Source: Candidatus Omnitrophota bacterium (lineage in GTDB: Bacteria > Omnitrophota > Gorgyraeia > Zapsychrales > Aceulaceae). From it: 64,000 bases of DNA. The stretch spans positions 72,433 through 136,432 of the forward strand of contig JAQUUP010000001.1 in assembly GCA_028693815.1 (NCBI GenBank). Direction: 5' to 3'. This document shows, piece after piece, positions 15,608-63,746 of the stretch; the stretch's first letter is position 1; each line of letters opens with the position of its first letter. The notes beneath the pieces were generated by a model, which searched no databases, was not told the origin of the DNA, and saw nothing but the letters and a program-made list of their open reading frames with translations. The position numbers and the translations under genes are program-made.

Positions 15608-16171
15608 TTAATTTGTTAGAATACGCGAAACAGGAATGTCGTGTTTTTCGATGGAAGGCAAACAGGAAACAATTTGAAAATCAAACGCTAATCCAAATAT
15701 CGGCGTTGTTTTGGGTAGCATACTTAAAAAACGATCGTAATATCCTTCTCCCCGACCAAGACGATTATTGGCTTGATCAAACCCAACACCCGGAACAATA
15801 ACTAAATCCGGATGTACAGGCACGAAGCCTTTTGCAATGCTATGTTTGGGTTGTTGAATGCCATAAGGTCCTTTTGTTAAATCTTTTTCTATGCTGTCTA
15901 TCAGAGAAGGAATAATCTTTTTTTCTTTTTTAATCGTAATTGGTAACGCTACTTTTTTTCCTAATTTTTGTGCCTTTTCTATCATCGAAAGGGTCTCTAC
16001 TTCTCCATCAAAAGAAAAGTAGAACATGACCACCTGAGCACGCATAAACTCCGGTGTTTTAAACAGCTTATTTTCGATAAGCTTACTTTTTTTAAGTCTA
16101 ACATCCTCCTTTTGAATTCTCAGTAATGTCAAAAGTCTTTTTCGCAAAGACTCCTTGAGGTTGTTGCCCAT
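15608..16171 (-). CDS. 5-formyltetrahydrofolate cyclo-ligase
   Basis: GVGFD...RLGRGEGYYDR signature. Confidence 0.8.
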   Translation of the reverse strand: MGNNLKESLRKRLLTLLRIQKEDVRLKKSKLIENKLFKTPEFMRAQVVMFYFSFDGEVETLSMIEKAQKLGKKVALPITIKKEKKIIPSLIDSIEKDLTKGPYGIQQPKHSIAKGFVPVHPDLVIVPGVGFDQANNRLGRGEGYYDRFLSMLPKTTPIFGLAFDFQIVSCLPSIEKHDIPVSRILTN

Positions 16172-16566
16172 TTATTATCCTTAATCATACAAACTACGTT
16201 AAGGGAAACATTTTACCATTTTTCTAATATATAGACAACTATTAATATTATAGAGATTTATTTATAAAAAGGCGGGCACATGTAAAATAAAACAATATTA
16301 CTATTTAAGAAATTCTTTCAAATATCCTACAAACCTATTGATTCCAGACACTTAAACCTGTAAGCAAGATTCTGCTAAAATATTCTAAACAAAAAAATCC
16401 CCGCTTATGCCGTTAGGATAGGTAACATGAACCGTATGTGTCAAGTGGGTGCCTCTTTAAACCATCCAAAGATGATTTAAAAGCTTAGCTCCCGTGTATA
16501 CTGTGTTGGTTCAGTATAACTTGACCCAACGCACACAGCAGGGAATGATTTATTATAACACAACTA

Positions 16567-18600
16567 TCAACGCTTGATAGCTTGCAAATCCGCAATAATT
16601 CTTTGGCAAATATTGCCATGAACCTCTTGAACCTCTTGCTCCGTAAGTGTCTTTTGAAAAGATTGATACGTAAGAGAAATCGTAACGCCACGGTGTCCTT
16701 TTTCAAGCTTTTCGCCCAAATACTGCTCTACAAAATCAACCTCTAAAAGCAATGGCTCGTTGTCCCTTAAAATGACATCTTTTATTTTTTGATAACTAAT
16801 ATTTTCTTGAAGACTCAAACTAATGTCGCGCACCACACAAGGATATTCGCAAACAGCTTTATATTTCTCAATTTTTTGAGACGCTTTAAAAATAGAACTT
16901 GTTTCAATTTGTGCAAAAAAAACATCTTGATATTTAATATCCCATCTATTTAAAACGCCTTCATCAATCTTCCCCAAAAATCCAATTTTCTTACCCTTAA
17001 AAACAACCTCTGCGCTCTGTCCTTTTTGACAATAACAAATCTCTGCTTTTTCAAAACAACCCTCTTCTTTTAAAAAATAACCTAGCACATTTTCAACAGT
17101 ACCTTTAATGTCATAAAAATCTATTTTTTCTTTTTTTAAACTGCGCCAATCTTTGCTCCTATCTCCGGTCATTACAATTGACAAAATATCTTTCTCGCCA
17201 GACGCTGGATAAATTTTCCCAAGCTCAAATAACTTTAAATTTTTCTGACCTCTTTTTATGTTTAGAGAAACAATATTTAGAATGCTTGGCAAAGAATCTG
17301 TTCTCATAAAAACCTGATCCTCGGTCAAAGGATTTTGATTTTGAATGATTTCTTTATCAAAAGAAATATTTGCATTCTCAATCGTTTTTTCTCCCACCAT
17401 GGTATAGCTAATAATTTCGTCTAATCCTTGCCCTGTTAATGCCTGTGACAAATCTTTTTTAAAAATCCATTTTTGAGAGCCAACAATATTTTGTGCTTTA
17501 ATTTCTGGCATCTTTAGAGGAAGATTGTCAAAGCCAACAACACGCGCGATTTCTTCAATCACGTCAACGTCTTTTGTAATGTCACTTCGAAATGATGGAG
17601 GAGCAACCTCTAAACAATTTTTCTTTTTCTCAGAAACCGAACACTCAAGTTTCTTTAAAATATTCTTAATTCTTGTCGTCGGAAGATTTGCCCCTAAAAG
17701 AGAATTGATTTGATCTGTCGTCACATCAATCTTTTTCTGAATCTTTTTTGACTTGCCAGGATAAACATCTTTTTGAGAAAACGCAACACCACCTGCCAAA
17801 TCTTGAATCAAATTAACTGCTCTTTTAATCCCCGCCTCAACAACATTAACATCAACCCCTCTTTCAAAGCGATAAGAAGAATCGCTTCGAAGCGCGAGAT
17901 TGCGCGATGCGCGCCGAATCAAAATAGGATCAAAATAAGCACTTTCCAACAAAATATTTTTTGTTTCTTTTGTTACCTCGGCTTCTTTGCCTCCCATAAT
18001 ACCTGCGATCGCAACTGGCTTTTTCTCATCTGCGATAACCAAAATAGATGGATCAAGATCATACACAACGTCATCAATCGCTATAATTTTTTCACCTTTT
18101 TTAGCGCGACGCACAACAACTTTGTTGCCTTTTAATTTATCATAATCAAAGGCGTGCATAGGCTGACCGGTTTCCATCAAGCAAAAATTAGTCACGTCAA
18201 CAATATTATTAATAGGGCGAAGACCAATGGTCTTTAAATTTTTTTGCATCCCAAGTGGAGATTGTGCGATTTTGACACCTGTCAAAATCGCACCAATATA
18301 CCGACTACAGTCTTTTTTATCTTCAATTGTGATGTCACATTTATTGTTTAAAAATTTTATTTTTTTTATTTTTGGCTTTTTTAAATTCTTATTTAAAATG
18401 GCAGAAAACTCTCGTGCCAAACCAATAAAGCTAAGACAATCTGGCCGATTCGGAGTCACCTCAAGCTCAAAAACGGTGTCGCCGTTAATCTTTTCGATTT
18501 TCTCGACTTCTTGTCCAGATAAAGTTAGCTTATGCGCAAGCTCATCAACTTTATTTGGAATATCAATATAATCTTTAATCCAATTTAAATTTATTTTCAT
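16567..18600 (-). CDS. pheT: Phenylalanyl-tRNA synthetase beta subunit (short form, 677 aa)
   Basis: N-terminal MKINLNWIKDYIDIP B1 block, B3/4 and B5 regions, C-terminal anticodon-binding fold. Confidence 0.9.
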   Translation of the reverse strand: MKINLNWIKDYIDIPNKVDELAHKLTLSGQEVEKIEKINGDTVFELEVTPNRPDCLSFIGLAREFSAILNKNLKKPKIKKIKFLNNKCDITIEDKKDCSRYIGAILTGVKIAQSPLGMQKNLKTIGLRPINNIVDVTNFCLMETGQPMHAFDYDKLKGNKVVVRRAKKGEKIIAIDDVVYDLDPSILVIADEKKPVAIAGIMGGKEAEVTKETKNILLESAYFDPILIRRASRNLALRSDSSYRFERGVDVNVVEAGIKRAVNLIQDLAGGVAFSQKDVYPGKSKKIQKKIDVTTDQINSLLGANLPTTRIKNILKKLECSVSEKKKNCLEVAPPSFRSDITKDVDVIEEIARVVGFDNLPLKMPEIKAQNIVGSQKWIFKKDLSQALTGQGLDEIISYTMVGEKTIENANISFDKEIIQNQNPLTEDQVFMRTDSLPSILNIVSLNIKRGQKNLKLFELGKIYPASGEKDILSIVMTGDRSKDWRSLKKEKIDFYDIKGTVENVLGYFLKEEGCFEKAEICYCQKGQSAEVVFKGKKIGFLGKIDEGVLNRWDIKYQDVFFAQIETSSIFKASQKIEKYKAVCEYPCVVRDISLSLQENISYQKIKDVILRDNEPLLLEVDFVEQYLGEKLEKGHRGVTISLTYQSFQKTLTEQEVQEVHGNICQRIIADLQAIKR

Positions 18601-18679: not shown

Positions 18680-20146
18680 TCATTCAATTGGAGATGGGGA
18701 AGGAGAACACACTTCATTCCAATCTCCATGGACAAGATACCATTTCCAATTTGCTCCATTGTCATCAGTAGAGCATAAGCGTAAAGTAGATGTCTGAACA
18801 GTCCCCGTTGCACATACAACTTTTTCAATTGGCGTGAATTTCAACATCCCAGCTGTCTTATCTGAACACGCCGTCCCTTCAGTACCAACTTTAATAGCAC
18901 CATTAACATCCAACTTGGCCTGAGGTACAGTTATCCCAATCCCAAGACGTCCACCGTTTGGCCACCCCTGATCATCAATAACCATAAAATTACTATCAGT
19001 TTGTCCCGCTCCGTTTCTATATCGAGCAAAGGTTAAATTTCCCTGATTACTAAAAATATTATATCGATCGTTTGTTCCTCCGCTAACAAAACTAAGCCCT
19101 GAAGAGCTATTGGCAGCCTCAGATTTAATCCAAACCCCCTCTGCACTCCCCTGAGCATTAACGTGAAGATGAGCTTGAGGAGCAGTTTTTCCTATCCCAA
19201 CATCCCCAGCAAAATAATTATCCCCGCCGCCTGTTTGATAAATTCCATACGCCGTATCAGCAGAAGTTTCCATATAAATTCCTGACTTTGTCGTAACACT
19301 CCTTGGAACGGCATCATTAAAAATCTCAATAACAGGACCATCTGGCGCAGCAGCGGTATTCTCAAAAACAGCAGAATAATTAAAATCTGTATTTTGAACA
19401 TGAAGGTCAGCAAAAGGAGTTTCTGTTCCGATACCAGTTCTTCCATTTTTTAAAACAGTGACTGCATTAGACCGATTCGCAGCACTTGCTCCGTTCCCAA
19501 TCACAAACAAAGGGTCAGTGTCAACCCAGGCATTTGTCGTCCCAGAAACAATATTATATTGTCCAAAAACAGCAGAATTTTTAGCCCTAGCATTAGCAAA
19601 TTGCCCACTAGCAAAAGAATAGTCTCCGCTAGCAAAACTTGCTTGACCAAAAACAGAAGCTCTCTTCCCAGAAGCAACATTCGCATTTCCTGCTGCAAAA
19701 GAATAACTACCACTCACCGAATTGCTTCCACCAAAAGCAGAAGCATTGTCTCCTGCAACATTATTTTGAAACCCTGATGCAAAAGATCTTGTCCCGCTTA
19801 CTGTATTTTCTGAACCAAAAGCCGTTGAATAGTTCCCCGTAGCATTGTTCGATTCTCCTGATGTAAAAGAATTGTTTCCTGTCGTAGTATTATTTAAACC
19901 AAAAGCAACAGAGGCGTTTGTTGCTGTGTTTCCTGACCCAGCAACAAGTGCACCTTGTCCAGCATCGGGAACAATCTCAACTTTATGGATAGGGTTTTCC
20001 TCCCCTACACCTAGCTGTCCCATAACCCTCATCTCTTGATACATGCCAAAAGGGGCTGGATAATACGTTGTCAAAGTAACTTTATCTGCAAAAGCTAATG
20101 AACAACAAGCAACAACAAATAATATGGTAAAAATTATTTTTTTCAT
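18680..20146 (-). CDS. Secreted surface repeat protein, paralog B. Signal peptide, conserved N-terminal module, YadA-head-like 14-residue beta-roll repeats, three GIG..P..L(D/H)V tail-fibre-like motifs, Cys-containing C-terminal domain. Start set at MKKIIF with a GGGGAAG RBS.
   Basis: The first 60 aa after the start are near-identical to the neighbouring paralog (DKVTLTTYYPAPFGMYQEMRVMG). Repeats of the form SFAxGxxNxASGxxS. Motifs GRTGIGTETPFADLHV, GDVGIGKTAPQAHLHV and GRLGIGITVPQAKLDV. Confidence 0.6.
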   Translation of the reverse strand: MKKIIFTILFVVACCSLAFADKVTLTTYYPAPFGMYQEMRVMGQLGVGEENPIHKVEIVPDAGQGALVAGSGNTATNASVAFGLNNTTTGNNSFTSGESNNATGNYSTAFGSENTVSGTRSFASGFQNNVAGDNASAFGGSNSVSGSYSFAAGNANVASGKRASVFGQASFASGDYSFASGQFANARAKNSAVFGQYNIVSGTTNAWVDTDPLFVIGNGASAANRSNAVTVLKNGRTGIGTETPFADLHVQNTDFNYSAVFENTAAAPDGPVIEIFNDAVPRSVTTKSGIYMETSADTAYGIYQTGGGDNYFAGDVGIGKTAPQAHLHVNAQGSAEGVWIKSEAANSSSGLSFVSGGTNDRYNIFSNQGNLTFARYRNGAGQTDSNFMVIDDQGWPNGGRLGIGITVPQAKLDVNGAIKVGTEGTACSDKTAGMLKFTPIEKVVCATGTVQTSTLRLCSTDDNGANWKWYLVHGDWNEVCSPSPSPIE

Positions 20147-20214
20147 TTCTTCCCCCAATACAATATTAAATAAAATAAATTCAAAAGCTAAAATCTAAAC
20201 TAATTTATTATCTT

Positions 20215-21675
20215 TTAATCAGTAAGATTAAGCCCATTTTCTATTCCTGATCCTCCGGGAGGAGAAGCAGCGCCAAGCTTAACCGCATGACAAGCCCCTT
20301 TCCATGTATATCCCGGCCCTCCTGGTATCAAAATCCCGTCTTTATCATATTCTTCTCCAGGATAACAAACCTCCAAAGCACAGCAATCATTACAGCTCCC
20401 AGCGGGCACGGCAGCAACGCGAACAGACCCTGCTCGAGTTGCATTACAGGCAACTAATTGAGCTGTACCAAACTGAGCATATCCATAGACATAAATATTA
20501 CGATTTTCATCAACATCATTACCACCAACAACAATATGGCCAGAACTAATTCTCCCATCTACCTGAAGAAGAGTTGCGCTACTCATCGAAATGCCTCCAA
20601 AATCAAGGCCAACATGAACAGGAAAACTCGGATCTTCCTTGCTTAACCCAATAAAATCACCACCCGTTACACCATCTTGCTTAACAAAAATACCTCGATC
20701 ATTGTCTCCTGAGCTAGAAATATTACCGTCCCCTAACGTGATTGTTCCGTCGCTAACATCAAGCCTAGATACAGGATTTGCAACACCAATCCCAACATCT
20801 CCATTTTTTAAAACAGCCACTGCATCAGATCGATTAGCGTCATTTGTTCCGTTTCCAATAACAAACAAGGGGTCTAAATTTTTCCAAAGATGCTCCGTTC
20901 CCCTAACCAGATTAAATCTTCCAAAAACCGAAGAACCCAAAGCTTTTGCCGTCACGTTTATCCCAGCAGCAAAAGTATTTCTTCCAATAGCATTATTCTG
21001 CTCTCCAAAAGCAAAGCTTTTTTCGTTGCTTACAATGTTCCCCTCTCCAAAGGCAGCGGACTGCTCACTTGAAACAGCATTCTTAAATCCAAAAGCAAAA
21101 GATCTTGTGTTAGAAACCGTATTGCTTTCCCCTGTTGCAAAAGAATTGTCTCCCGAAACAGCGTTGTCAGATCCTGCGGCAAAAGAACTAATTCCATCTA
21201 CATCATTTTTTGAACCAAACGCAGATGAATTTTCACCAGAAACAACATTTTCGTCTCCCGAAGCAAAAGATGTTTCTCCAGAAGCCGTATTTGAAAACCC
21301 AGAAGCAAAAGCTCTAAGCCCAGAAACAGTATTGCCAGATCCTGTTGAAAAAGAACTAGCTCCAGTAGAGCTATTCATATCTCCTGTTGCAAAAGAAGTT
21401 GATCCGCTCGCTGTGTTTCCTGAACCAAGAGCAGAGGACATATTTGACGCTGTGTTTCCTATTCCAGCAACAAGGACACCTTGACCTGCCCCATCAGCAA
21501 TAATCTCCACTTTATGAGTAGGGTTTTCCTCTCCAACGCCGAGCAAGCCCATAACCCGCATCTCTTGATACATGCCAAAAGGGGCTGGATAATACGTTGT
21601 CAGCGTAACTTTATCTGCGAAAACTAACGAACAACAAGCAATAAGAAATAATATTGTAAAAATTACTTTTTTCAT
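20215..21675 (-). CDS. Secreted surface repeat protein, paralog A. Same N-terminal module and beta-roll repeats, with a distinct Cys-rich C-terminus.
   Basis: MKKVIFTILFLIACCSLVFADKVTLTTYYPAPFGMYQEMRV... followed by Ser/Gly/Asn-rich repeats SFAAGSDNAVSGDNSFATGESNTVS and DPLFVIGNGTNDANRSDAVAVLKNGDVGIGVANP. RBS GGAGG. Confidence 0.6.
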   Translation of the reverse strand: MKKVIFTILFLIACCSLVFADKVTLTTYYPAPFGMYQEMRVMGLLGVGEENPTHKVEIIADGAGQGVLVAGIGNTASNMSSALGSGNTASGSTSFATGDMNSSTGASSFSTGSGNTVSGLRAFASGFSNTASGETSFASGDENVVSGENSSAFGSKNDVDGISSFAAGSDNAVSGDNSFATGESNTVSNTRSFAFGFKNAVSSEQSAAFGEGNIVSNEKSFAFGEQNNAIGRNTFAAGINVTAKALGSSVFGRFNLVRGTEHLWKNLDPLFVIGNGTNDANRSDAVAVLKNGDVGIGVANPVSRLDVSDGTITLGDGNISSSGDNDRGIFVKQDGVTGGDFIGLSKEDPSFPVHVGLDFGGISMSSATLLQVDGRISSGHIVVGGNDVDENRNIYVYGYAQFGTAQLVACNATRAGSVRVAAVPAGSCNDCCALEVCYPGEEYDKDGILIPGGPGYTWKGACHAVKLGAASPPGGSGIENGLNLTD

Positions 21676-21757
21676 CTTTTTCCTCCTAAATTTAGCCAGG
21701 GCCTACTCTTCGTAACAACAAAATACAAAGCTCTGTCTAGGTTAAGATTAGTCCCAA

Positions 21758-21907
21758 CACGTTAAACGTGCGAGATAACTTTCAAAAATCAAATATTCAA
21801 TATCCCAGCATTCTACACATGCGGGATAACATTCAAAATCAAATGCTCAATATCCCGAAAACGCTTAGGCGTTTTCGGGACTGCCTCGCTTTTGCTCGGC
21901 TGGTCCC
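21758..21907 (+). repeat. Mosaic hairpin-linker repeat array: 3 GC-rich perfect hairpins separated by 2 copies of a 26-27 nt conserved linker (TAAC[A/T]TTCAAAA[A]TCAAAT..TCAATA).
   Basis: Hairpins are cacgt-taa-acgtg, tccc-agcattctacacatgc-ggga and tcccgaaaacgc-ttag-gcgttttcggga. The linker is repeated at 21776 and 21827. The same grammar is seen at 29.2 kb, 44.1 kb and 60.3 kb. Confidence 0.6.
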
Positions 21908-21935
21908 TTATGTTCTAAAAACCGAGCTTTTGCGT

Positions 21936-22979
21936 CTAGAATTGTTTAAGAAATCTTACATCATTCTCAAAAAACAAACGAATATCATTAATGCCGTACT
22001 TTAGCATGGCAATGCGCTCAACGCCCATTCCAAATGCAAGGCCTGTGTATTTATTTTTTGGATATTTGACCGCTTCAAAAACTTTTGGGTGAACCATGCC
22101 GCAACCCAATATTTCAAGCCATCCTTTTCGTCCACAAACCGAACATCCTTTTCCTTTACAAATATAACACGAAATATCGACCTCTGCCGAGGGCTCGGTA
22201 AACGGAAAGAAATGTGGACGAAATCGCATTTTAATATCTTTTCCAAACAATTTCTGACAAAAAACTGTAAGCAATCCCTTCAACTCGGAAAGAGTCACTT
22301 TTTCATCAACTAGCAATCCTTCAATCTGATGAAACATAAATGAATGACTCGCATCCACCGCATCAGGTCGATATACCTTGCCAGGAACAATCACAGCTAA
22401 AGGAGGTTTATTATTTTGCATCGCACGAATTTGTGCAGGAGAAGTGTGACTGCGGAGCAAAAGATTACGTTCTTTGTTACTCGGGTCTTTCGCATCCAAA
22501 TAAAAAGTATCAAACGCATCGCGAGAAGGATGGTCTGCCGGAATATTAAGCGCTGTAAAATTGTTAAACTCTGTTTCGATTTCTGGACCTTCAAAAACAG
22601 AAAATCCTAATTTCTCAAAAATTGCACAAATTTCATACATTGTTTGAGATAAAATATGCGCATGCCCCAAAGGCACTTTAACTCCTGGCATAGTCACATC
22701 GATACTATCTTGAGCTTTTTTTTCTTCATGCTCAGACTGAAAAAGTTTCTTTTTCTCATCAATAATAGACTGTATTTTATTCCTTAGGTCATTGGCCTTT
22801 TTGCCAATCAAAGGTTTTTCTTCTTTTGAGGCGGCCCCAAGACTTGCGTAAATTTCAGCAACAAACCCTTTTCGCCCTAAATATTTGATACGAAAGGCTT
22901 CTAGCTGATCTGCGCCACTTATCTGAGAAGCTTCTTGAGATAAATTTGTATTAATTTCTTCGAAATTCCAAGATGTCAT
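21936..22979 (-). CDS. pheS: Phenylalanyl-tRNA synthetase alpha subunit
   Basis: Class II motifs FRPHFFPFTEPS and GLAFGMGVERIAM. Confidence 0.9.
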   Translation of the reverse strand: MTSWNFEEINTNLSQEASQISGADQLEAFRIKYLGRKGFVAEIYASLGAASKEEKPLIGKKANDLRNKIQSIIDEKKKLFQSEHEEKKAQDSIDVTMPGVKVPLGHAHILSQTMYEICAIFEKLGFSVFEGPEIETEFNNFTALNIPADHPSRDAFDTFYLDAKDPSNKERNLLLRSHTSPAQIRAMQNNKPPLAVIVPGKVYRPDAVDASHSFMFHQIEGLLVDEKVTLSELKGLLTVFCQKLFGKDIKMRFRPHFFPFTEPSAEVDISCYICKGKGCSVCGRKGWLEILGCGMVHPKVFEAVKYPKNKYTGLAFGMGVERIAMLKYGINDIRLFFENDVRFLKQF

Positions 22980-28973: not shown

Positions 28974-29100
28974 GTAAATAAAATTCAAATATTTGTAAAA
29001 ATTGAAAATAGAGATTTGAACGCAATGACTTTTTTTCTTGTCAATTATCTATTTTCTATTCTCAATTGCTCTGTGAGTTTTTGATTTTCAAAAACTCATA

Positions 29101-29183: not shown

Positions 29184-29208
29184 AAATATTCAAAGATCAT
29201 TAACTTCA

Positions 29209-29352
29209 CACGTTTCACGTGCAGAGCAAATTCGCCTACATACCTTACAAAAACTCGTATCCTACATTCTAATCAATCAAATCATTTCTCCGACACGCTT
29301 CGCGTGCGGAGTAAATTCGGACTTATAGTTTACGGAACTTAAGCTCCGTAAA
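29209..29352 (+). repeat. Hairpin-linker mosaic repeats between tRNA-Leu and tRNA-Cys. Includes a 31-nt element GACACGCTTCGCGTGCGGAGTAAATTCGGAC that recurs (reverse orientation) upstream of tRNA-Glu.
   Basis: Hairpins cacgt-ttc-acgtg (29209-29221), cacgc-ttc-gcgtg (29294-29306) and tttacgga-acttaagc-tccgtaaa (29329-29352). TAAATTCG / CAAATTCG linker motif. Confidence 0.55.
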
Positions 29353-29367
29353 CCATGTCCTCATTTA

Positions 29368-33800: not shown

Positions 33801-35417
33801 TTACCCTACCTTTTTTATTTTGGACATTCTCATTTGAGTAAAAGTCGAGAGAATATAAAACATCGTAAAATACAATGTTAGCCCGCTTGAAAATTTATAA
33901 AATATAAATCCTAAAAATATTGGAAAAATCATGGTCATCATTTTTTGTTGCATTATTTGATTTGGATCTGTTGCCGCCATGTTTTTGGATGAAGCCTTTT
34001 GTTGAAAAAACATCGCTACCATCATAATAATTGGCAAAATATTTAATTCATTCCCAATAATCGGAAGCGAAAACGGAAAAATAAACAATCTATCTGGCAT
34101 AGAAAGATCTTTAATCCATAAAAAATTTGCTCCTTTTAAAGATACCGTTCTCCAAAGCGCTTGATATAAAGCAATGAATGCAGGCATTTGTAAGATCATT
34201 GGGAGACAACCACCCATAGGATTTACTGAATTTGTCTTGTACAAATCCATAATCTCTTTGTTTAAGCGCTGTGGATTGTTTTTATATTGTTCCCTTATCT
34301 TTGTAATTTCTGGCTGCAAAGCTTGCATTTTTTTCATAGAAAGCATGCTTTTTATGGTCAGCGGATACGTCACTAAATAAAATAAAATACTGATCATAAT
34401 AATACAAAATCCCCAATTTGGAATAACCTTGTATATCAAGTTCATTGTGATCACAACCAAGTTTGATATTGAATCTAATATCCAATATTTACTAAAAACA
34501 GACACTTTTTCAATTCCAAGATCATATCCGGATAAAATTGTCTTATCTTGAGGACCAACATAAACAAAAGCGTTATAAGAAATTTTTTCTCCAGGCTTCA
34601 TTTCAACATTTTTTGTTTCTAAAATTAAGTCGAGCTGATTTTTTCCAACAGGAACCGTTTTGTAATCTTTTGTTTTAAATTCAGGCTTAACGATAGCACA
34701 AAAATACCGATTTCTAAAAGCAGACCAATCAACATTTCCCATCTTATGAAATAAATTTTTAGAATTAAACTCAATAGCATTATTTTTTCTTATGATTTCC
34801 CCGTCTAAAGAAACGCTATATTCATAAAGTCCGCGTTCGCGAGCATTATTTTTATCATTAATCAATTCGCTTGTTTCAACAGTCAAAGTGTTTATTTTTA
34901 AATTTTTCACTTTGGACATTCCTGAAACATTTTGTATGTTTAATTCAACATTGAAGAGATAATCCTCTTTGGACAAATCATATGTTTTTGTAACTTCATA
35001 TGAATCATCTCTGTAATAAAAAATAACTTTATTGTCCAAAGATTTTCGAAGCGAGAAGGGGTATCTTTCATAACCAGCTAAACCAATAATATTTTCAACC
35101 GGCATGGATTCTTGATACTTCTTAATTGTAATTTTCTTTAAATTACCGCCAATATTTGAAAATTCTGCCTTAAAAACATCGTTTTCAATTATTGTTACTT
35201 CTTCTTTTGCTCCAGAAAAATTTGCTGAATCAGGGGTTGCTTCAGCAACCTCAATATTTGTAAACTCTTTATTGTCAAATACTTGCGTTTCTTCTGCTGA
35301 AGGACCTAAAACAATATTCTTCGCTTCTCCTACAGGGCTTTTCTTTAATACTAAAGCGTTATATCCAAATAATATAACTATTGATATTAATATAGCCAAA
35401 AAAGTTCTTTTTTCCAT
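33801..35417 (-). CDS. yidC: Membrane protein insertase YidC
   Basis: 538 aa. Periplasmic domain plus a conserved C-terminal 5-TM core (PMILQMP...). Confidence 0.9.
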   Translation of the reverse strand: MEKRTFLAILISIVILFGYNALVLKKSPVGEAKNIVLGPSAEETQVFDNKEFTNIEVAEATPDSANFSGAKEEVTIIENDVFKAEFSNIGGNLKKITIKKYQESMPVENIIGLAGYERYPFSLRKSLDNKVIFYYRDDSYEVTKTYDLSKEDYLFNVELNIQNVSGMSKVKNLKINTLTVETSELINDKNNARERGLYEYSVSLDGEIIRKNNAIEFNSKNLFHKMGNVDWSAFRNRYFCAIVKPEFKTKDYKTVPVGKNQLDLILETKNVEMKPGEKISYNAFVYVGPQDKTILSGYDLGIEKVSVFSKYWILDSISNLVVITMNLIYKVIPNWGFCIIMISILFYLVTYPLTIKSMLSMKKMQALQPEITKIREQYKNNPQRLNKEIMDLYKTNSVNPMGGCLPMILQMPAFIALYQALWRTVSLKGANFLWIKDLSMPDRLFIFPFSLPIIGNELNILPIIMMVAMFFQQKASSKNMAATDPNQIMQQKMMTMIFPIFLGFIFYKFSSGLTLYFTMFYILSTFTQMRMSKIKKVG

Positions 35418-35427
35418 AAATTTAATC

Positions 35428-35640
35428 CTATGTTAAAGGGTCAAACCCTCCTCGAGAGAGGGGGGAACAGCGCAAAATTCGACAAATTGCCTTTATAGAG
35501 CCTTTGACAGCCCCATATTTTTGCAAAGCTTCGAGCGCATACTCCGAGCATGAAGGATGAAAACGACACGTACCTGTAAAAAGGCTGTGTTTAATTTTTT
35601 GATATAAGCGTATCAAAAACGATAATATATTAATAATCAT
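35428..35640 (-). CDS. yidD: Membrane protein insertion efficiency factor YidD
   Basis: RFHPSCSEYALEAL signature. Confidence 0.8.
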   Translation of the reverse strand: MIINILSFLIRLYQKIKHSLFTGTCRFHPSCSEYALEALQKYGAVKGSIKAICRILRCSPLSRGGFDPLT

Positions 35641-35665
35641 AATTAGATTTTTTTGAGGATAGATG

Positions 35666-35803
35666 CTAAACTGCTAATTTCTTTCGCCCTTTTTGTCGTC
35701 GGCGTTTTAGAATTTCTCGTCCATCAGGCGTTTCCATGCGGTGGCGAAAACCATGCTTTCTTTTACCTTTTATTTTTGTTGGTGTTTTTAGTGTCTTTTT
35801 CAT
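35666..35803 (-). CDS. rpmH: 50S ribosomal protein L34 (not in the ORF track, below its size cutoff)
   Basis: Minus-strand translation gives [45 protein letters not shown]. Confidence 0.85.
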
Positions 35804-35826
35804 TTTTTGAATTTCCTCGTTAATAA

Positions 35827-36183
35827 AATTAAAAGATACTGGTGCTCAGTATCTTTACTTTTTTTGTAAATATTTGAATAAGTATAACACGACTGATTTT
35901 CTAGTCAAGCTTTTTTCTTTTTTCAAAGGCCCTAAAACAATCTATTCCCAATATGTTAGGAGCCATTTTCATTTTTAAAAACCTTTTATAATCACCAAGG
36001 GGGAGAAGGGGAAGTTTTAGGTTGAAATTCGTTTTTTCTCTGTTATAATAAATTCGCTTTTGCCGCTTCTTTAGAATATTCATTTTATTTTTTTGTGTTC
36101 CTCGAAGGCTCACGGCGAAAAACCATACACTGTTTCTGTGGAAAAGCTGTTAATTCTGTGGATTAACCTATTTAAACCTTTTA
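35827..36183. other. oriC: Putative chromosomal replication origin / dnaA promoter region (rpmH<- ->dnaA divergent intergenic)
   Basis: Canonical rpmH|dnaA-dnaN-gyrB-gyrA synteny. DnaA-box-like 9-mers TGTGGAAAA (36137-36145) and TGTGGATTA (36157-36165) lie just upstream of dnaA. AT-rich tracts. A second AT-rich spacer runs 37549-37698. Confidence 0.45.
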
Positions 36184-37548
36184 TTGTCATCTTTTATGAG
36201 CTTATTAACAATCTGGGAAAACGCACAGCCTCTTATTCGATCCAAAATCGGAGAGACCTCCCATGAAACCTGGTTTTCCATTTTAAGCATCAAAGAAAAA
36301 AATCCTGATACACTCATTATCGAAACACCTGACGAATTTTTTAAAAACTGGATTGTCGAACACTATCTTACTTTCATTGAAGAAGCTGTCAACGAACAAA
36401 CACCAAAAAATATCAATCTTGAATTTGAAGTCAATTCTCAACTTCTCGGCGCCCAAAAACAAAAAAAATTTAGCATATTAGAAAAAAAATTTGAAGAAAA
36501 ACATTCGCCGAAAACAGGGATTGTTGATTCCTCTATCATCACGCCTCGATTTACTTTTGAAAATTTTGTCGTCGGGTCTTCGAACCGTTTTGCTCATGCC
36601 GCTAGCTTTGCTGTTGCTGAATCTCCAGCAAAAGAATACAATCCATTGTTTCTTTACGGCGGAGTTGGGCTTGGAAAAACACATTTAATGCAATCCATCG
36701 CAAATAAAATTAGAATAAGTAAACCAGAAACAAAATTCTGCTATATTTCTTCTGAAAAATTTACTAACGGCCTTATTGATGCTATTCGCCATCGATCAAC
36801 AGCACAATTTCGTCAAAAATATCGTTCTGTAGATGTTCTTCTTGTCGACGATATTCAGTTTATTGCTGGCAAAGAATCAACACAAGAAGAATTTTTTCAC
36901 ACGTTTAATGATCTTCACCAAGCTCGTAAGCAAATCGTTGTTTCGTCGGATAGGCCACCTCAAAATATTCCAAATTTAGAAGATCGGCTAAGCTCTCGTT
37001 TTGCGTGGGGGCTTGTTGCAGATGTTCAACCGCCAGACTTTGAAACTCGCGTTGCTATTTTAAAAAAGAAAATTGAACGTGAGTCAACTAAAGTGCCAGA
37101 TGAAGTTGTTTTTTTTATTGCCGAGCAAATTAAAACAAATATTCGAGAACTTGAAGGGGCTTTGGTTCGAGTTATGGCATATTCTTTATTAGAGGAACGA
37201 ACCGTTTCTTTAGAAATGGCTAAAATTATATTAAAAGATATGGTTAAAGAAACAACTAAGCTAATTACGGTTGATATGATCCAAAAAATTGTGGCTAATC
37301 ATTATAATATTTCTTTACATGACTTAAAAACAACCAAAAGACATAAAAATATTGTTTTGCCTCGCCAAATTGCAATGTATTTATCTAGACAGCTTACGAA
37401 TCTTTCGTTACCTGAAATCGGAACTGCATTTGGGGGTAAAGACCATACGACAGTTTTACACTCATGTAAAAAAATTGGAAAAGAAATAACCGAAAATAGT
37501 ATTTTGAAACAATCCACGGAACAGTTATCCTTGGAGATTAAACAATAA
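36184..37548 (+). CDS. dnaA: Chromosomal replication initiator DnaA
   Basis: AAA+ Walker A GGVGLGKTHL. C-terminal DNA-binding domain. Confidence 0.95.
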   Translation: MSSFMSLLTIWENAQPLIRSKIGETSHETWFSILSIKEKNPDTLIIETPDEFFKNWIVEHYLTFIEEAVNEQTPKNINLEFEVNSQLLGAQKQKKFSILEKKFEEKHSPKTGIVDSSIITPRFTFENFVVGSSNRFAHAASFAVAESPAKEYNPLFLYGGVGLGKTHLMQSIANKIRISKPETKFCYISSEKFTNGLIDAIRHRSTAQFRQKYRSVDVLLVDDIQFIAGKESTQEEFFHTFNDLHQARKQIVVSSDRPPQNIPNLEDRLSSRFAWGLVADVQPPDFETRVAILKKKIERESTKVPDEVVFFIAEQIKTNIRELEGALVRVMAYSLLEERTVSLEMAKIILKDMVKETTKLITVDMIQKIVANHYNISLHDLKTTKRHKNIVLPRQIAMYLSRQLTNLSLPEIGTAFGGKDHTTVLHSCKKIGKEITENSILKQSTEQLSLEIKQ

Positions 37549-37698
37549 TCTTTTTTAATCCACTAGTTTTAAACATGATTTTTTTTTATAAGTTCTTTGT
37601 TTTCTTATAGTTTTGTTCTTATTCAAATTATTAACAGGCACTACGATAACTACAACTATTTTTTTTAAAATAGTTAGAATCATTTTTTTGTAAAGGAT

Positions 37699-38799
37699 GT
37701 GAATATTATGAAAATCAAGATTTTAAAAGATGACTTGTTGTTTGGAATAACAAAGGTACAAAATGTTGTGTCTTCAAAAACAACATTACCAATCCTTTCT
37801 AATATGTTGCTAGAAACAACAAAAAAATCAACAATTCGTCTCTATGCAACAGATCTTGATATTGGAATATCCTGTGAAATACCTGTGCAAATCTTTGAAG
37901 AAGGAGCGATAACTCTTCCAGCTAAAAAGTTTAGTGATATTATTAAAGAATTACCATCGGGGGATATTTTAATTACAGCAAAGAAAAACAATCATGTTGA
38001 AATTGAGGGAGAAAAATGCTTATTCAAATTAATTGGTCTTCCTAAAGAAGAATTTCCAAAATTTCCTGAATTTAAAAATGTAGAAGCTGTTGTGATTAAT
38101 CAAGGAGTTTTGAAAGAAATGTTAAAAATGACTTCTTTTGCTGTATCGCATGAAGAAGCAAGATATATCTTAAATGGTGTTTTGTTGGAGATTGAAGATG
38201 ATATTATACGCCTTGTTGCAACTGATGGCAGAAGATTAGCTAAGATTGAGAAAACAACATCAGCACCAATTAAAAAAGAAACTAAAATCATTATCCCAAC
38301 AAAAGCTGTTTATGAAGTTATGAGAAATATAAAAGAAGAGGGGCAGATTTCTTTGTTGACGAACGCAAACCAACTTTTGTTTGATATTGATCATGTATTA
38401 ATTGCAACACGTGTTATCGAAGGAGATTATCCGAACTATAATCAAGTTATTCCTACTGAACAAAAAAATAAAATTATTATCAATACGCAAGAATTGTTAG
38501 CTGCAATCAAACGAGCTAATCTTTTAACAACACCTGATTTTCAAGCAGTGAAGTTTGAAGTTTTTAAAGATAAATTAGTTGTTTCAAAAATTACTCCTGA
38601 CCTAGGGGAATCCAGAGAAGAAGTAAAAATTGAATATGGCGGCCCAGAACTTATTGTTGGTTTTAATCCGCATTTCTTTATTGAAGCTTTAAAAAATATT
38701 GAATCAGAAGAGATTGGATTAGAACTTTTAGGGGCGGATAAACCAGGTGTTATAAGAATGAACGATTATCTTTATTTAGCGCTTCCAATGCGTATTTAA
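37699..38799 (+). CDS. dnaN: DNA polymerase III beta sliding clamp
   Basis: 366 aa, three-domain clamp. Follows dnaA. Confidence 0.9.
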   Translation: MNIMKIKILKDDLLFGITKVQNVVSSKTTLPILSNMLLETTKKSTIRLYATDLDIGISCEIPVQIFEEGAITLPAKKFSDIIKELPSGDILITAKKNNHVEIEGEKCLFKLIGLPKEEFPKFPEFKNVEAVVINQGVLKEMLKMTSFAVSHEEARYILNGVLLEIEDDIIRLVATDGRRLAKIEKTTSAPIKKETKIIIPTKAVYEVMRNIKEEGQISLLTNANQLLFDIDHVLIATRVIEGDYPNYNQVIPTEQKNKIIINTQELLAAIKRANLLTTPDFQAVKFEVFKDKLVVSKITPDLGESREEVKIEYGGPELIVGFNPHFFIEALKNIESEEIGLELLGADKPGVIRMNDYLYLALPMRI

Positions 38800-44063: not shown

Positions 44064-44091
44064 TTGACTGTGTTAGTTTTTTGTTTATAAT
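44064..44091 (+). promoter_or_regulatory. Sigma70-like promoter (TTGACT, 16 nt spacer, TATAAT) upstream of tRNA-Glu
   Basis: cTTGACTgtgttagttttttgttTATAATg. Confidence 0.35.
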
Positions 44092-44130
44092 GCTGAAACA
44101 TAAATTTAAGACTCTATCGTTAAATGAGCC

Positions 44131-44200
44131 TCAAGTTTATGAAGCGTTAGCGTTCATAAACTTGACAGGCGAATTTACCCCGCATGCGAAGCGTGTCGGG
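44131..44200 (-). repeat. 13-bp perfect hairpin plus reverse-orientation copy of the 31-nt tRNA-associated element (RC: CCGACACGCTTCGCATGCGGGGTAAATTCGCCTG)
   Basis: tcaagtttatgaa-gcgttagcg-ttcataaacttga (44131-44165). Bases 44166-44200 are about 28/31 identical to the element at 29292-29322 after reverse complement. Confidence 0.55.
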
Positions 44201-44214
44201 CAAAAGATATTTAA

Positions 44215-44288
44215 GACCCCATCGTCTAGCCTGGTTAGGACACAAGCTTTTCAAGCTTGCAGCACGGGTTCAAATCCCGTTGGGGTCG
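44215..44288 (+). tRNA. tRNA-Glu (anticodon UUC)
   Basis: GACCCCATCGTCTAGCCTGGTTAGGACACAAGCTTTTCAAGCTTGCAGCACGGGTTCAAATCCCGTTGGGGTCG. Glu-type GTCTAG D-loop. Confidence 0.8.
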
Positions 44289-44324
44289 CTTTTGTGGCTC
44301 TGAAGGAAATTCCTTCAGAGCCAT

Positions 44325-59810: not shown

Positions 59811-60161
59811 TTATTCGATATTATCAAATGTATCACTTGCATCCATAACACGATCTAGCCATTGATGACAATGTTTACAGATTCGCGCTTCCTTAAAGAC
59901 TTTTTTTCCACAAAAAAAACATTTCTTTTTTTCAATACTTTTGTAATCAACATTAATTAAATCATCAATAATAAATTGGTCACAAAAAGGGCATTTTTTT
60001 GGTTGCTCTAAAACAGCTTCAAAACAATAGGGACATTTTTGCATAAAGAGTTTCCTTTCTTTTTTTATATTTTGAATGGTTTGTTTTATTTTGACAAGAA
60101 GAATTTTTGATTTTAATAAATAGAGAATAATTGCCTTTTTAAGCTTGACGTTGGTATTCAA
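59811..60161 (-). CDS. Double zinc-ribbon protein (three CxxC pairs). The true start is probably the internal Met (MQKCPYCF), which leaves the upstream region intergenic.
   Basis: CPYC..CPFC..CFFC..CKHC. The track start is a TTG 39 codons upstream of the first ATG. Confidence 0.45.
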   Translation of the reverse strand: MNTNVKLKKAIILYLLKSKILLVKIKQTIQNIKKERKLFMQKCPYCFEAVLEQPKKCPFCDQFIIDDLINVDYKSIEKKKCFFCGKKVFKEARICKHCHQWLDRVMDASDTFDNIE

Positions 60162-60174
60162 GCTAGGATATAAT
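60145..60174 (+). promoter_or_regulatory. Sigma70-type promoter (TTGACG, 18 nt spacer, TATAAT) on the plus strand, divergent from the zinc-ribbon gene
   Basis: aagcTTGACGttggtattcaagctaggaTATAATg. Confidence 0.4.
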
Positions 60175-60180
60175 GAAAAA

Positions 60181-60278
60181 AAGCATTTTGGACATTTTCT
60201 CTCTGGACATTCTTGTCTGATTTCTTTAGAGTTTTCTAGAAAAATCAGGCAGATGACCCCGCAAAGCGGGGTTTTATA
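60181..60278 (+). ncRNA. Candidate small RNA (about 100 nt) bounded by the promoter above and an intrinsic terminator. No homology assigned.
   Basis: Promoter-to-terminator unit with no ORF longer than 15 codons. Contains the direct repeat TGGACATT twice. Confidence 0.3.
60256..60278 (+). terminator. Rho-independent terminator (7-bp GC stem ACCCCGC/GCGGGGT, AAA loop, TTTTAT tract)
   Basis: gACCCCGCaaaGCGGGGTtttat read directly. The reverse-complement side lacks a U-tract. Confidence 0.55.
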
Positions 60279-60306: not shown

Positions 60307-60438
60307 GTTCCGCTAGGCCGCGGAACTCACAGGGTAAATTCGAAAATCTAATCGGTGAATATCCCGATACCCTTCGGGTACGGGATAAATTCGCTCAATA
60401 AACTTATGTCGGCAAAATTGGCCTCCATAAGTTTGGAG
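60307..60438 (+). repeat. Hairpin-linker mosaic repeat array (3 hairpins, 2 TAAATTCG linkers) directly upstream of ORF 60446. The last hairpin sequesters the GGAG Shine-Dalgarno sequence.
   Basis: gttccgc-taggcc-gcggaac, tcccgataccc-ttcg-ggtacggga and ctcca-taagtt-tggag. Linkers GGTAAATTCGAAAATCTAATCGGTGAATA and TAAATTCGCTCAATAAAC align with the 21.8 kb linker TAACATTCAAAATCAAATGCTCAATA. Confidence 0.55.
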
Positions 60439-60445
60439 CTCATTT

Positions 60446-62401: not shown

Positions 62402-62437
62402 GCTATGATTTATTATTAATAAAAAAAGGAGGAAATT

Positions 62438-62644
62438 GTGTTAAAACTATTGAGAAATAAAAAAGGGCAGAGCACGTTGGAATATATTCTTTTGATAACA
62501 GCTGTTATTGCGGTGGCTATTATTTTCTTAAATCCGACAACAGGGCAGTTTGGTCGAGTTCTTAATGATACACAGAATACAATCTCGAGTGAAATAGATG
62601 AGGCTGGGGTAGATTTAGCTGGGAATATTAGAGTTTCATTATAA
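62438..62644 (+). CDS. flp: Flp-family pilin (GTG start)
   Basis: LLRNKKGQSTLEYILLITAVIAVAIIFL. The G/QSTLEY motif equals the Flp G/XXXXEY processing motif. AAGGAGG RBS. Confidence 0.65.
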   Translation: MLKLLRNKKGQSTLEYILLITAVIAVAIIFLNPTTGQFGRVLNDTQNTISSEIDEAGVDLAGNIRVSL

Positions 62645-62670
62645 AAGAATAAGCAAAAAAGGAGGAAATT

Positions 62671-62865
62671 GTGTCAAAATTATTGAGAAACAAAAAAGGA
62701 CAGAGCACGCTGGAATACATTCTTTTGGTAACAGCCGTTATTGCGGTGGCTATTATTTTTTTAAATCCGGCAACAGGACAGCTTGGCAATATTCTTGGCG
62801 ACACATACAACACAGTTGCAAACGAAATGAACGCAGCCGCTAACACTTTATCTGGGGCGTTTTAA
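62671..62865 (+). CDS. flp: Flp-family pilin, tandem paralog of 62438 (GTG start)
   Basis: The N-terminal 40 aa are near-identical to the previous gene. Identical RBS context aaaaaaggaggaaattGTG. Confidence 0.65.
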   Translation: MSKLLRNKKGQSTLEYILLVTAVIAVAIIFLNPATGQLGNILGDTYNTVANEMNAAANTLSGAF

Positions 62866-62896
62866 GCTTAACTATAAAAAAGAAAAAAAGGAGGAG

Positions 62897-63274
62897 ATGA
62901 TGATGAGGTTTTTAAAAAACAAGAAAGCGCAAAATGTTGCTGAGTATGCTATTTTGATTGCTTTGGTTGTTGGTGCAATTATTGCTATGCAAACATTTGT
63001 CAAAAGAACCATGCAAGGAAGACTTAGAGATGCTTCGCAGTATTTGACAGATAATAGTAATTTTGGTGCCGGTGGGGCAACTACTTACAGCACTGGACAA
63101 TACGAGCCTTATTATACACAAAGCAACTATGCTACCACGCGCACTGCAAATGAAATGCAGGCAGTTACTGCTGGTCAAGCGAGCTTGATATCAAATACAG
63201 ATACAACAAGAACAGGTTCTTCGAATACGATGTATGACACTACTGCCACTATTGGCAATGGAATAGCGTTTTAA
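62897..63274 (+). CDS. Flp/TadE-like minor pilin (125 aa) with Thr/Ser/Asn-rich C-terminal tail
   Basis: KNKKAQNVAEYAILIALVVGAIIAM (A/QNVAEY). GGAGG RBS. Confidence 0.55.
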   Translation: MMMRFLKNKKAQNVAEYAILIALVVGAIIAMQTFVKRTMQGRLRDASQYLTDNSNFGAGGATTYSTGQYEPYYTQSNYATTRTANEMQAVTAGQASLISNTDTTRTGSSNTMYDTTATIGNGIAF

Positions 63275-63372
63275 TAATGATGTTGGAAAAAAGAAGAAAG
63301 TTTAAGAAGCATAAATAATGGTTTTTGTAAGAGGGTCGCTAATATACATTGAATAAATAAAGAGGAGGGAGA

Positions 63373-63678: not shown

Positions 63679-63746
63679 AAAAATGAGATTGTTGGTTGAA
63701 ATTAATAATATTTAGGCTGAACTAAAAAAGCAAGAAAGGAAAAAAG

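Follow-up and report, generated by a model that had tools for sequence, protein, structure and literature searches.

The closest described counterparts of the element reported here are the REPs (palindromic sequences, extragenic and repetitive), the bacterial interspersed mosaic elements (BIMEs) and the bacterial MITEs (transposable elements of the miniature inverted-repeat type). REPs are mobilized by Y1 transposases, the REP-associated tyrosine transposases (RAYTs), and binding of gyrase and of integration host factor (IHF) has been proposed for BIMEs. The REP palindrome bears an unpaired GTAG (or CGTC) tag at one end (PMC3733652). Some MITEs alter the fate of neighboring mRNAs, as in the RNase III processing of NEMIS, and some fuse with the ends of open reading frames (ORFs), while Caulobacter CIR consists, like the present element, of two independent stem-loops joined by a linker (PMC2229807). 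We analyzed a 64-kb chromosomal stretch, hereafter the window, of a Candidatus Omnitrophota metagenome-assembled genome (MAG; GC content about 36%), in which an initial annotation had marked four intergenic sites (sites 1–4: 21758–21907, 29209–29352, 44131–44200, and 60307–60438) as a dispersed BIME/REP-like family. GC-rich hairpins with TCCC...GGGA feet are indeed found at all four, beside AT-rich conserved sequence. The sites are copies (one has decayed) of an intergenic repeat that is widespread, apparently uncatalogued and present in Omnitrophota and in at least one or two other phyla. This repeat family is defined by its structure, reaches a high copy number and behaves in genomes much as REPs and BIMEs do; we document its architecture, covariation, abundance, phyletic spread, placement at gene boundaries and turnover among relatives, and the lack of matches to it in Rfam and in viral contigs.

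The unit is about 85 nt long and is composed of two directly abutting hairpins, HP1 (aTCCCG-A-stem-CGGGAt) and HP2. We call orientation A the strand reading GTAAATTCG and orientation B the reverse strand, TAAATGAG...CGAATTTATCCCG. In orientation A, HP1 comprises aTCCCG, usually a bulged A, a variable stem of 4–7 bp, a short loop and CGGGAt, and is followed by TAAATTCG or TAAC[A/T]TTC. TAAATTCG is the 5' foot of HP2, a conserved hairpin of 55–60 nt closed by CTCATTTA, whose helix of ~22 bp is interrupted by a 2x2 loop and a 2-nt bulge: at its base TAAAT pairs with ATTTA, followed by the 2x2 loop (TC/TC), a G-C pair and a long variable helix. The initial annotation had taken TAAATTCG for the start of a linker; it is actually the 5' half of HP2, at 29312–29367, 44121–44177 (minus strand), and 60386–60446, and the unit grammar proposed there was mis-parsed because HP2 had been missed. 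HP1 exists in three variants, the bulged-A form, which is the window type, a form with a TC/TC 2x2 loop like that of HP2, and a long form with an extra apical hairpin. Its stems vary, in line with the variable palindromes originally described, but their sequences are not free, as ACACG..CGTG recurs in several and the bulged A follows TCCCG in most.

Modules occur singly or in mosaic arrays with a shortened HP2-like linker. The true AT-rich linker reads as the HP2 frame TAA..TTC ... CTCA(A/T)TA without the inner helix. Proposed as conserved at all four sites, it is present twice at site 1 and once at site 4, and elsewhere only a remnant is left, at site 2. The two tandem units of locus L091 (positions 1–260; loci compared with the window are given L numbers), just upstream of a prepilin-like gene, have an identical 63-nt long-form HP1 and clearly different HP2, which suggests that the HP1 and HP2 modules may be exchanged or evolve independently.

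Both helices covary. In an HP2 alignment of 95 sequences, 95.7% of the cells are paired, compared with 22–43% in slid controls, and 284 cells are changed on both sides against a shuffle mean of 86, a value reached by none of 500 shuffles; several pairs occur in all four Watson-Crick types (e.g. CG 41, GC 25, AU 21, UA 3), while six invariant pairs are uninformative, because the search pattern fixed them. For HP1, aligned from 15 sequences outside the window, 93% of the cells are paired and double changes number 25 against 7.2 after shuffling (0/500). Conservation of the junction and of the 3' end is exaggerated in these alignments, because they were gathered with fixed anchors.

A covariance-model search, which the initial annotation had suggested as a check, matches sites 2–4 strongly. 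Model R2 (HP1 plus junction), trained solely on sequences from outside the window, has its top match at 60360–60393 (54.9 bits, E = 5e-11), with others at 29286–29319 (46.1 bits, E = 6e-9) and 44170–44202 on the minus strand (38.9 bits, E = 3e-7), and a weaker one at 29203–29234 (18.2 bits, E = 0.03). Model R1 (HP2) matches the window exactly three times, at the HP2 positions given above; these three copies were in its training set, and all match the anchor pattern exactly anyway. In total, the window holds three canonical units, at sites 2, 3, and 4, and about five partial ones in 64 kb. Short words alone are not enriched in it (GTAAATTCG 3 vs 0.9 expected; TAAATTCG 8 vs 5.9), and therefore significance must rest on the composite.

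Outside the window, one genome per species, the source genome not being among them, was scanned with the strict HP1-plus-junction pattern CCGANNNNNTTCNNNNNCGGRRTAAATTCG, which returned 18 stretches. Eleven have complementary arms, and in all 11 an HP2 follows, with a 3' end of the CTCAT type that in most cases is exactly CTCATTTA; the seven others, with non-complementary N5 arms in a coding-like context, are chance matches. When just the junction and the 3' end served as anchors, as CGGGATAAATTCG-N30-60-CTCATTTA, a scan of metagenomes gave at least 120 stretches. All those listed show a long self-complementary HP2, and most have an HP1 hairpin upstream, though the pattern did not demand it. 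The same two-hairpin architecture was found more than 130 times over both scans. According to the initial annotation, the similarity would be coincidental if there were no further copies elsewhere in the genome and no conservation in relatives; many further copies exist elsewhere. Carriers are found in Omnitrophota (labeled genomes, and L118, whose GdhA is 98% identical to that of Omnitrophica MAGs) and in Smithellaceae (Desulfobacterota; the XerC of L062 matches, at 100% identity, a protein encoded on a Smithellaceae contig of 1.4 Mb); by record label only, they also include Bacteroidota MAGs, among them a 692-kb contig labeled Flavobacterium sp. Among 2.9 million viral contigs neither pattern had a match, and a phage origin was rejected on this ground. 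In L007 (Ca. Aceula lacicola), five HP2 copies lie within 8 kb and composite modules recur at ~90% identity as judged by eye; tandem arrays were seen in L014, L017, L022, L027, and L091, and inverted pairs in L041, L057, and L103. If the samples are representative, copies per genome being extrapolated from the window and the sampled loci, the element is a major unannotated component of Omnitrophota genomes (3–8 units per 64 kb here, five per 8 kb in Ca. Aceula, at least 120 metagenome stretches).

The flanking genes are unrelated housekeeping genes (FabG/F, XerC, HslV, PhoH, TrpC/F, Prs, EF-Ts, aminoacyl-tRNA synthetases, and others), which agrees with the earlier view that the arrays are not gene-specific; a gene-specific leader or riboswitch was rejected, as the genes downstream have no relation to one another. 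In the batch scan, three of the flanking ORFs had a match to the Proteasome (HslV-like) family, and neither transposases nor reverse transcriptases were enriched. A whole-window scan against Rfam 15 retrieved only tRNAs and 6S RNA at the gathering threshold. Permissive Rfam searches with sites 4 and 1 gave as best near-matches Fibrobacter-1 (21.4 bits, threshold 77.9), RT-19 (18.7, threshold 78.3), and COG3610-DE (23.8, threshold 73.5), all rejected as far under threshold, and a literature search with motif strings and for Omnitrophota repeats returned nothing relevant.

The least expected result is the flush placement of the element at gene and tRNA edges. The 120 copies with enough flank were classified against mechanically called ORFs of at least 80 codons, a few conflicting assignments being settled by ORF length or by a Shine-Dalgarno-like word. 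In 44 of them (START), a same-strand ORF begins within ~20 nt of CTCATTTA, after AGGAGG or with an ATG that touches or overlaps its last A, and in 41 (STOP) an opposite-strand ORF terminates in the element's own TAAATGAG; the other 35 belong to neither class and include those with tRNA genes or further copies as neighbors. Frame analysis of the STOP class gave TAA in 28 cases and TGA in 14, while the third frame, devoid of a stop in the TAAATGAG 8-mer, accounts for only three cases, probably spurious. The 3' ends of opposite-strand tRNAs lie 0–1 nt from the CTCATTTA/TAAATGAG end, flush in L044, L075, and L111, and at site 2 the distance between HP2 and the 3' end of tRNA-Cys (29369, minus strand) is 1 nt; the position abutted is that at which CCA would begin. 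The HP1 end is less sharply placed, 0–400 nt from the neighbors. At site 4, the last base of HP2 is the A of the ATG of ORF 60446–62080 (544 aa), and its 3' arm contains GGAG, the putative Shine-Dalgarno sequence of this ORF. In L017 and L142, the pheS stop codon is the TGA within TAAATGAG, and PheS exceeds that of relatives by one lysine. In L031, L032, L062, and L099, a unit of ~90 nt is flush with the xerC stop codon and another same-strand ORF follows shortly after. As the element supplies stop codons, abuts or contains ribosome-binding sites (RBSs) and comes between tRNA genes, gene calling and the prediction of operons can be led astray by it.

The comparison of relatives for presence or absence, also proposed initially, revealed polymorphism in presence and in orientation at the tRNA-Cys/tRNA-Leu and pheS sites. 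The two tRNA genes are ~6 nt apart in L001, whose PheS is 85% identical, vs 184 nt in the window, where 1.5 units lie between them. Downstream of pheS, L017 and L142 have a canonical HP2-HP1-linker-HP1-linker array; the site is decayed in L143 and L001, reorganized in the window and unrecognizable in L144, and in L145 (Ca. Aceula meridiana) it carries a single unit in the opposite orientation. The same tRNA cluster contains a second indel: the tRNA-Leu/tRNA-Val interval encodes a 159-aa ORF with a signal-peptide-like start in L001 (3336–3849) vs 126 nt in the window (28974–29099), which carry the hairpin GAGTTTTTGAAAATCAAAAACTC and a TTGACA box.

We favor, with moderate confidence, a non-autonomous duplicative or mobile palindromic element of the REP/BIME/MITE kind, which would be selected for its hairpins, settle at gene edges via its AT-rich end and then act as passive hairpin punctuation. 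The hairpin form would be selected more probably as DNA, a single strand or cruciform being recognized by a trans-acting enzyme. The AT-rich TAAAT end would settle precisely at coding and tRNA boundaries; it carries TAA and TGA on one strand and, on the other, can directly precede an RBS or ATG. After settling, the element would be co-transcribed with its neighbors, and its stable hairpins would probably serve as orientation-independent punctuation, either as a termination barrier or as a barrier protecting RNA ends. We infer all three of the parts that go to make up this scenario, namely mobility as the cause of the spread, selection at the DNA level, and an effect on transcripts.

A hint of selection on DNA comes from the two strands. 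As originally stated, the element occurs in both orientations relative to genes; in the window the strand reading GTAAATTCG is sense at site 4 and antisense at sites 1–3, and between co-directional neighbors the two orientations number 24:22. The HP2 alignment contains 28 G.U and 21 A.C cells, each ~2% of the variable pairs, and strand assignment by this measure was abandoned, as there is no asymmetry and hence no transcribed-strand signature. The balanced orientation (24:22, and 44:41 for the START and STOP classes) and the lack of a G.U excess fit DNA hairpins, or both strands, better than one transcript; this is suggestive, not decisive, of selection on DNA hairpins (or both strands) rather than on a single RNA strand.

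Several observations weigh against a mobile element. No transposase or candidate enzyme was detected beside the copies (148 flanking ORFs) or by tblastn with approximate queries in 925 kb, and the units have no whole-unit terminal inverted repeats and no target-site duplication. The tRNA-Cys/tRNA-Leu comparison is the only filled/empty pair, with a divergence too great for exact junctions. The same 13+8 nt core is found in different phyla, which is unusual for REPs and MITEs and hints at a conserved cellular partner. Four Smithellaceae-type contigs have kept the copy right after xerC, with differences in HP2 that are compensatory, and this looks like selection on a host function. Finally, in orientation B the three 2x2 loops become tandem G.A pairs and many HP1 loops become GAA closed by C-G; the predicted folding is more stable on this strand in 118 of 129 copies (mean -24.0 vs -20.2 kcal/mol), and this strand is the sense, transcribed one at three of the four window sites (1–3). 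Such a G.A reading suggests that a single strand may be functional.

The shared core, the xerC copy with its compensatory changes, and the tandem G.A reading with its lower folding energy all speak for an alternative that we consider possible, although we give it limited credence, in which the element is a host-functional structured RNA and not primarily mobile DNA, an intercistronic or tRNA-flanking punctuation co-transcribed with its neighbors. It could be the target of a conserved ribonuclease or RNA-binding protein, a terminator or exonuclease barrier set immediately behind stop codons and tRNA 3' ends, or a 5' stabilizer or translational gate before an RBS or ATG, and the functional strand would read TAAATGAG...CGAATTTATCCCG, with tandem G.A pairs as its internal loops. 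The strong covariation of both helices is in favor of this RNA, as are the exact abutment on stop codons and tRNA discriminator bases, the putative Shine-Dalgarno sequence within HP2 at site 4, the position of orientation B as sense strand at window sites 1–3, and the setting of two of these sites, site 3 lying between a promoter-like site and tRNA-Glu with a terminator after it and site 2 inside the tRNA-Cys/tRNA-Leu spacer. Canonical terminator-like sites are, moreover, not above chance in the genome (19 vs 14.4 ± 3.4). Against a functional RNA, some 50% of the copies have the opposite direction relative to the flanking genes and G.U is not in excess over A.C; at one orthologous site, copies have decayed, vanished, or been inverted; arrays as dense as four or five units in a few hundred nucleotides are functionally hard to justify; the neighboring genes have no common feature; and no Rfam family matches. 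The mobile-element and RNA-punctuation readings are not mutually exclusive.

Less support can be given to a third explanation, which we judge unlikely, that the element is duplex or cruciform DNA to which a protein of the chromosome binds (for example gyrase, a recombinase, or a nucleoid-associated protein), with the ATCCCG...CGGGAT and TAAAT...ATTTA feet as half-sites. It would account for symmetric conserved feet around variable interiors, for orientation independence, for the lack of wobble asymmetry and for the extragenic placement; yet a dimeric duplex binder needs no self-complementary interior, and the interior covaries strongly, the linker misfits the IHF consensus WATCAANNNNTTR, and the flush placement at start and stop codons is left unexplained. 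That the four sites are unrelated ordinary terminators or leaders of an AT-rich genome, similar by coincidence, is highly improbable and is refuted for sites 2–4, since, although short words alone are unenriched and the site 1 units individually reach only E 0.65–7.6, models from other genomes match sites 2–4 at E 3e-7 to 5e-11, the more than 130 further copies have the same two-hairpin architecture, and canonical units occupy the orthologous site in relatives.

A few narrower readings were tried and rejected. Promoter hexamers in the linker or junction, and their spacing, are inconsistent between copies by eye, and a generic promoter scan finds nothing in the elements; peptides from the ATG inside TAAATGAG vary in length and sequence, again by eye. 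A hammerhead-like core (UGAG...CGAA) is missing the CUGA box and has no Rfam match, a kink-turn is at odds with a bulge lying 4 bp from the G.A pairs, and the likeness of GCTCATTTAAC to an rRNA-type boxA fits one copy only.

Taken together, a two-hairpin module with three 2x2 tandem-mismatch loops in distant phyla might be, as we suggest with some doubt, either a new non-autonomous mobile element that targets exact coding-sequence and tRNA edges and donates stop codons, or a cross-phylum RNA punctuation signal with a conserved factor, the family being absent from Rfam and from the repeat literature searched. The core common to Omnitrophota, Smithellaceae, and the Flavobacterium-labeled MAG implies horizontal spread or a conserved partner protein. 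With hundreds of covarying copies in both orientations, and decay and inversion at orthologous sites, the family also offers a clean comparative set for distinguishing DNA- from RNA-level selection.

Within the window, site 1 is the weakest, its three HP1-like units scoring 8–13 bits (R2; E 0.65–7.6), and it is assigned to the family because its two 26–27 nt linkers recur at site 4 and in relatives and because the pheS spacer is orthologous to that of L017/L142. On the plus strand, it begins with a degenerate unit U1, TCCCAA-CACGT..ACGTG-CGAGA (21752–21775; R2 21750–21783, 11.4 bits, E = 1.3), followed by linker 1, TAACTTTCAAAAATCAAATATTCAATA (21776–21802), an HP2 frame TAA..TTC ... CTCAATA without the inner stem, of a type also seen at the orthologous site in L001 and L017. 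Unit U2, TCCC-A-GCAT..ATGC-GGGA (21803–21826; R2 21801–21835, 9.0 bits, E = 4.8), is separated by linker 2, TAACATTCAAAATCAAATGCTCAATA (21827–21852, read from the sequence), from U3, a perfect 12-bp hairpin TCCCGAAAACGC-TTAG-GCGTTTTCGGGA (21853–21880) found by hairpin scan and scored by R2 at 12.7 bits on the minus and 8.2 bits on the plus strand. A divergent long hairpin, CGCTTTTGCTCGG ... CCGAGCTTTTGCG (21887–21934, not assigned to a strand), stands where relatives have HP2, by comparison with L017/L142; it has no R1 match, and 1 nt separates its end from the pheS stop codon (21936–21938).

Site 2, on the plus strand, consists of a degenerate HP1 plus junction, CACACGTTTCACGTGCAGAG-CAAATTCG, at the weaker R2 match (29203–29234), a decayed HP2 or linker remnant ending in TTCTAATCAATCAAATCATTTC (29235–29285), recognized by eye only from its resemblance to the linker, and the canonical HP1 plus junction, TCCG-A-CACGC-TTC-GCGTG-CGGAG-TAAATTCG, and HP2, TAAATTCG...CTCATTTA (R1 59.5 bits). 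Site 3 is a canonical HP1 with junction and a canonical HP2 on the minus strand, the plus strand of HP2 reading TAAATGAG...CGAATTTA (R1 65.1 bits). It lies in a compact tRNA-Glu unit (44064–44324), in which a TTGACT-16-TATAAT promoter-like site (44064–44091) is followed by the repeat element as leader and by tRNA-Glu (44215–44289), and then by a strong terminator, a 14-bp perfect hairpin with a TTGTTT tail, overlapping the start of a DUF2079 ORF (44325). Site 4, on the plus strand, opens with a leading hairpin GTTCCGC..GCGGAAC and a GGGTAAATTCG junction (60307–60342), an atypical HP1 found by hairpin scan (R2 60324–60342, 14.1 bits, E = 0.3), and continues with a linker of the site 1 type, TAAATTCGAAAATCTAATCGGTGAATA (60335–60359), whose pattern TTCRAAAATCWAA also occurs in L001 and L017, the canonical HP1 plus junction, ATCCCG-A-TACCC-TTC-GGGTA-CGGGAT-AAATTCG, and the canonical HP2 (R1 58.8 bits). 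Just before it, in the region 59811–60272, a 116-aa minus-strand ORF beside a DUF192 gene has a weak zinc-ribbon match under the Pfam cut-off; on the far side of this ORF, a GC-rich plus-strand hairpin ACCCCGCAAAGCGGGGT is followed by TTTATAA (60256–60272), so the call of the ORF or of the terminator may be wrong.

The window contains five tRNA genes and one 6S RNA gene, and its PheS is 100% identical to an Omnitrophica protein at NCBI. The GC skew changes sign at ~36–37 kb, where dnaA, dnaN, and gyrA lie, and genes are on the minus strand to the left of this point and on the plus strand to the right. A replication origin region is apparently located at 35400–37700: the cumulative GC skew has its minimum at ~36–38 kb, gene orientation switches there, and dnaA (36184–37548), dnaN, gyrB-like, and gyrA ORFs follow. 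The 765-nt spacer 5' of dnaA contains an 11-bp hairpin (35832–35856). The 6S RNA gene (16394–16547, minus strand; Rfam RF00013, 70 bits) is directly upstream of the pheT ORF (16567–18600), on the side of ORF 15608–16171. Between pheS and pheT (18680–21675), two paralogous genes of ~490 aa consist of repeats with a period of 42 nt (14 aa); they match LbR_Ice_bind and YadA_head weakly and have near-identical 5' ends (19963–20154 vs 21492–21683, 86% identity); L001, L144, and L145 have one or two periodic-repeat genes of the same kind at this position. At 62415–63950, a region covered by repeat families D3, D5, D8, and D9, short tandem paralogous ORFs, each preceded by AAAAAGGAGGAAATTGTG, start with ..LLRNKKG and a hydrophobic stretch, and their N termini resemble those of prepilins or pseudopilins.

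When compared with known systems, the element does not show what defines REP/RAYT (it has neither the tag nor the IHF linker, and no RAYT was detected), MITEs (terminal inverted repeats, target-site duplication), integron attC sites (core sites, cassettes), or CRISPR arrays. A CRISPR array does not fit, as there are at most two linkers per site and the would-be spacers are self-complementary hairpins of 24–28 nt with conserved feet. With attC sites, the element shares imperfect palindromes conserved in structure and variable in sequence, extrahelical bases, an unpaired central spacer, ORFs that begin or end at the edges and, probably, selection as folded single strands. However, its consensus AYAACTTAYG/CRTAAGTTRT does not match the core sites RYYYAAC/GTTRRRY, and it differs by having no cassette arrays, syntenic housekeeping neighbors and no integrase nearby save housekeeping xerC in one lineage. 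As for the palindrome-associated transposable elements (PATEs) of IS200/IS605, approximate queries gave no TnpA match and no fixed word of 4–5 nt follows CTCATTTA; the 24:22 orientation argues against their strand bias, replication direction being known for the window only.

Bidirectional terminators and 3'-stabilizing hairpins resemble the element in having a stable hairpin with an A-tract on one side and a U-tract on the other (UAAAU...AUUUA), which directly follows stop codons or tRNA genes and in principle works in either orientation. The HP2 tails CUCAUUUA and CGAAUUUAU on the two strands have only three U each, and a terminator scan flags 60423–60438 (plus strand; part of HP2 and its tail) and 60368–60351 (minus strand). 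In contrast to terminators, which need neither a conserved junction CGGGAUAAAUUCG nor 2x2 loops nor a second abutting hairpin, the element forms multi-unit arrays, and half of its copies lie ahead of a start codon and have no gene ending close by. The bacterial MITEs (Neisseria Correia/NEMIS, ERIC, RUP, CIR) are likewise small non-coding dispersed repeats, co-transcribed and folding into stable stem-loops; the present unit is shorter (~85 nt), and what it conserves is the complementarity of the arms and not their sequence, which a transposase binding terminal inverted repeats would need. The unit ends (aTCCCG..., ...CTCATTTA) do not form an inverted repeat with one another, each hairpin being a palindrome by itself, and no direct repeat brackets the units, the left flanks being mostly GA, AA, or AG before TCCC, with TA in a minority.

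REPs and BIMEs (including the REPINs of Enterobacteria and Pseudomonas) share many traits: their palindromes are short, rich in GC and imperfect, lie strictly outside genes in a housekeeping context and reach high copy numbers, as do the HP1 hairpins of 24–28 nt, all copies of which are intergenic and numerous. They also form mosaic arrays with conserved linkers, in both orientations, are co-transcribed with flanking genes and turn over between relatives. No GTAG/CGTC tag is adjacent to any window unit or to those of alignments A1 and A4, in which the feet aTCCCG/CGGGAt are followed by TAAATTCG. The linkers AATCAAATGCTCA, AATCAAATATTCA, and ATCTAAACACTCA do not match the IHF site, all being without its TTR part. 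In line with the initial statement that no RAYT is present in the window, tblastn with RAYT and IS200 TnpA queries in the window and 141 loci (925 kb) gave nothing below E = 0.1, a weak negative because these query sequences were approximate, and no RAYT/IS200-like family is represented among the 148 flanking ORFs. Unlike the single palindrome of 20–40 nt in REP, the unit is a two-hairpin module of ~85 nt, in which conservation is confined to the feet and the junction and the stems are free to vary, with covariation; its core spans phyla, whereas REPs are species-specific; and one of its ends lies directly against the start or stop codons of genes or the ends of tRNAs. Its window-array units are direct where those of BIMEs alternate, direct units joined by conserved linkers being found at sites 1 and 4, L001, and L017, and inverted head-to-head pairs in L041, L057, and L103. 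While membership in REP or BIME proper is thus not supported, given no tag, direct units, no IHF fit, and a cross-phylum core, its placing in a BIME/REP-like class stands as regards dispersed extragenic mosaic palindromes that form arrays and occur in both orientations.

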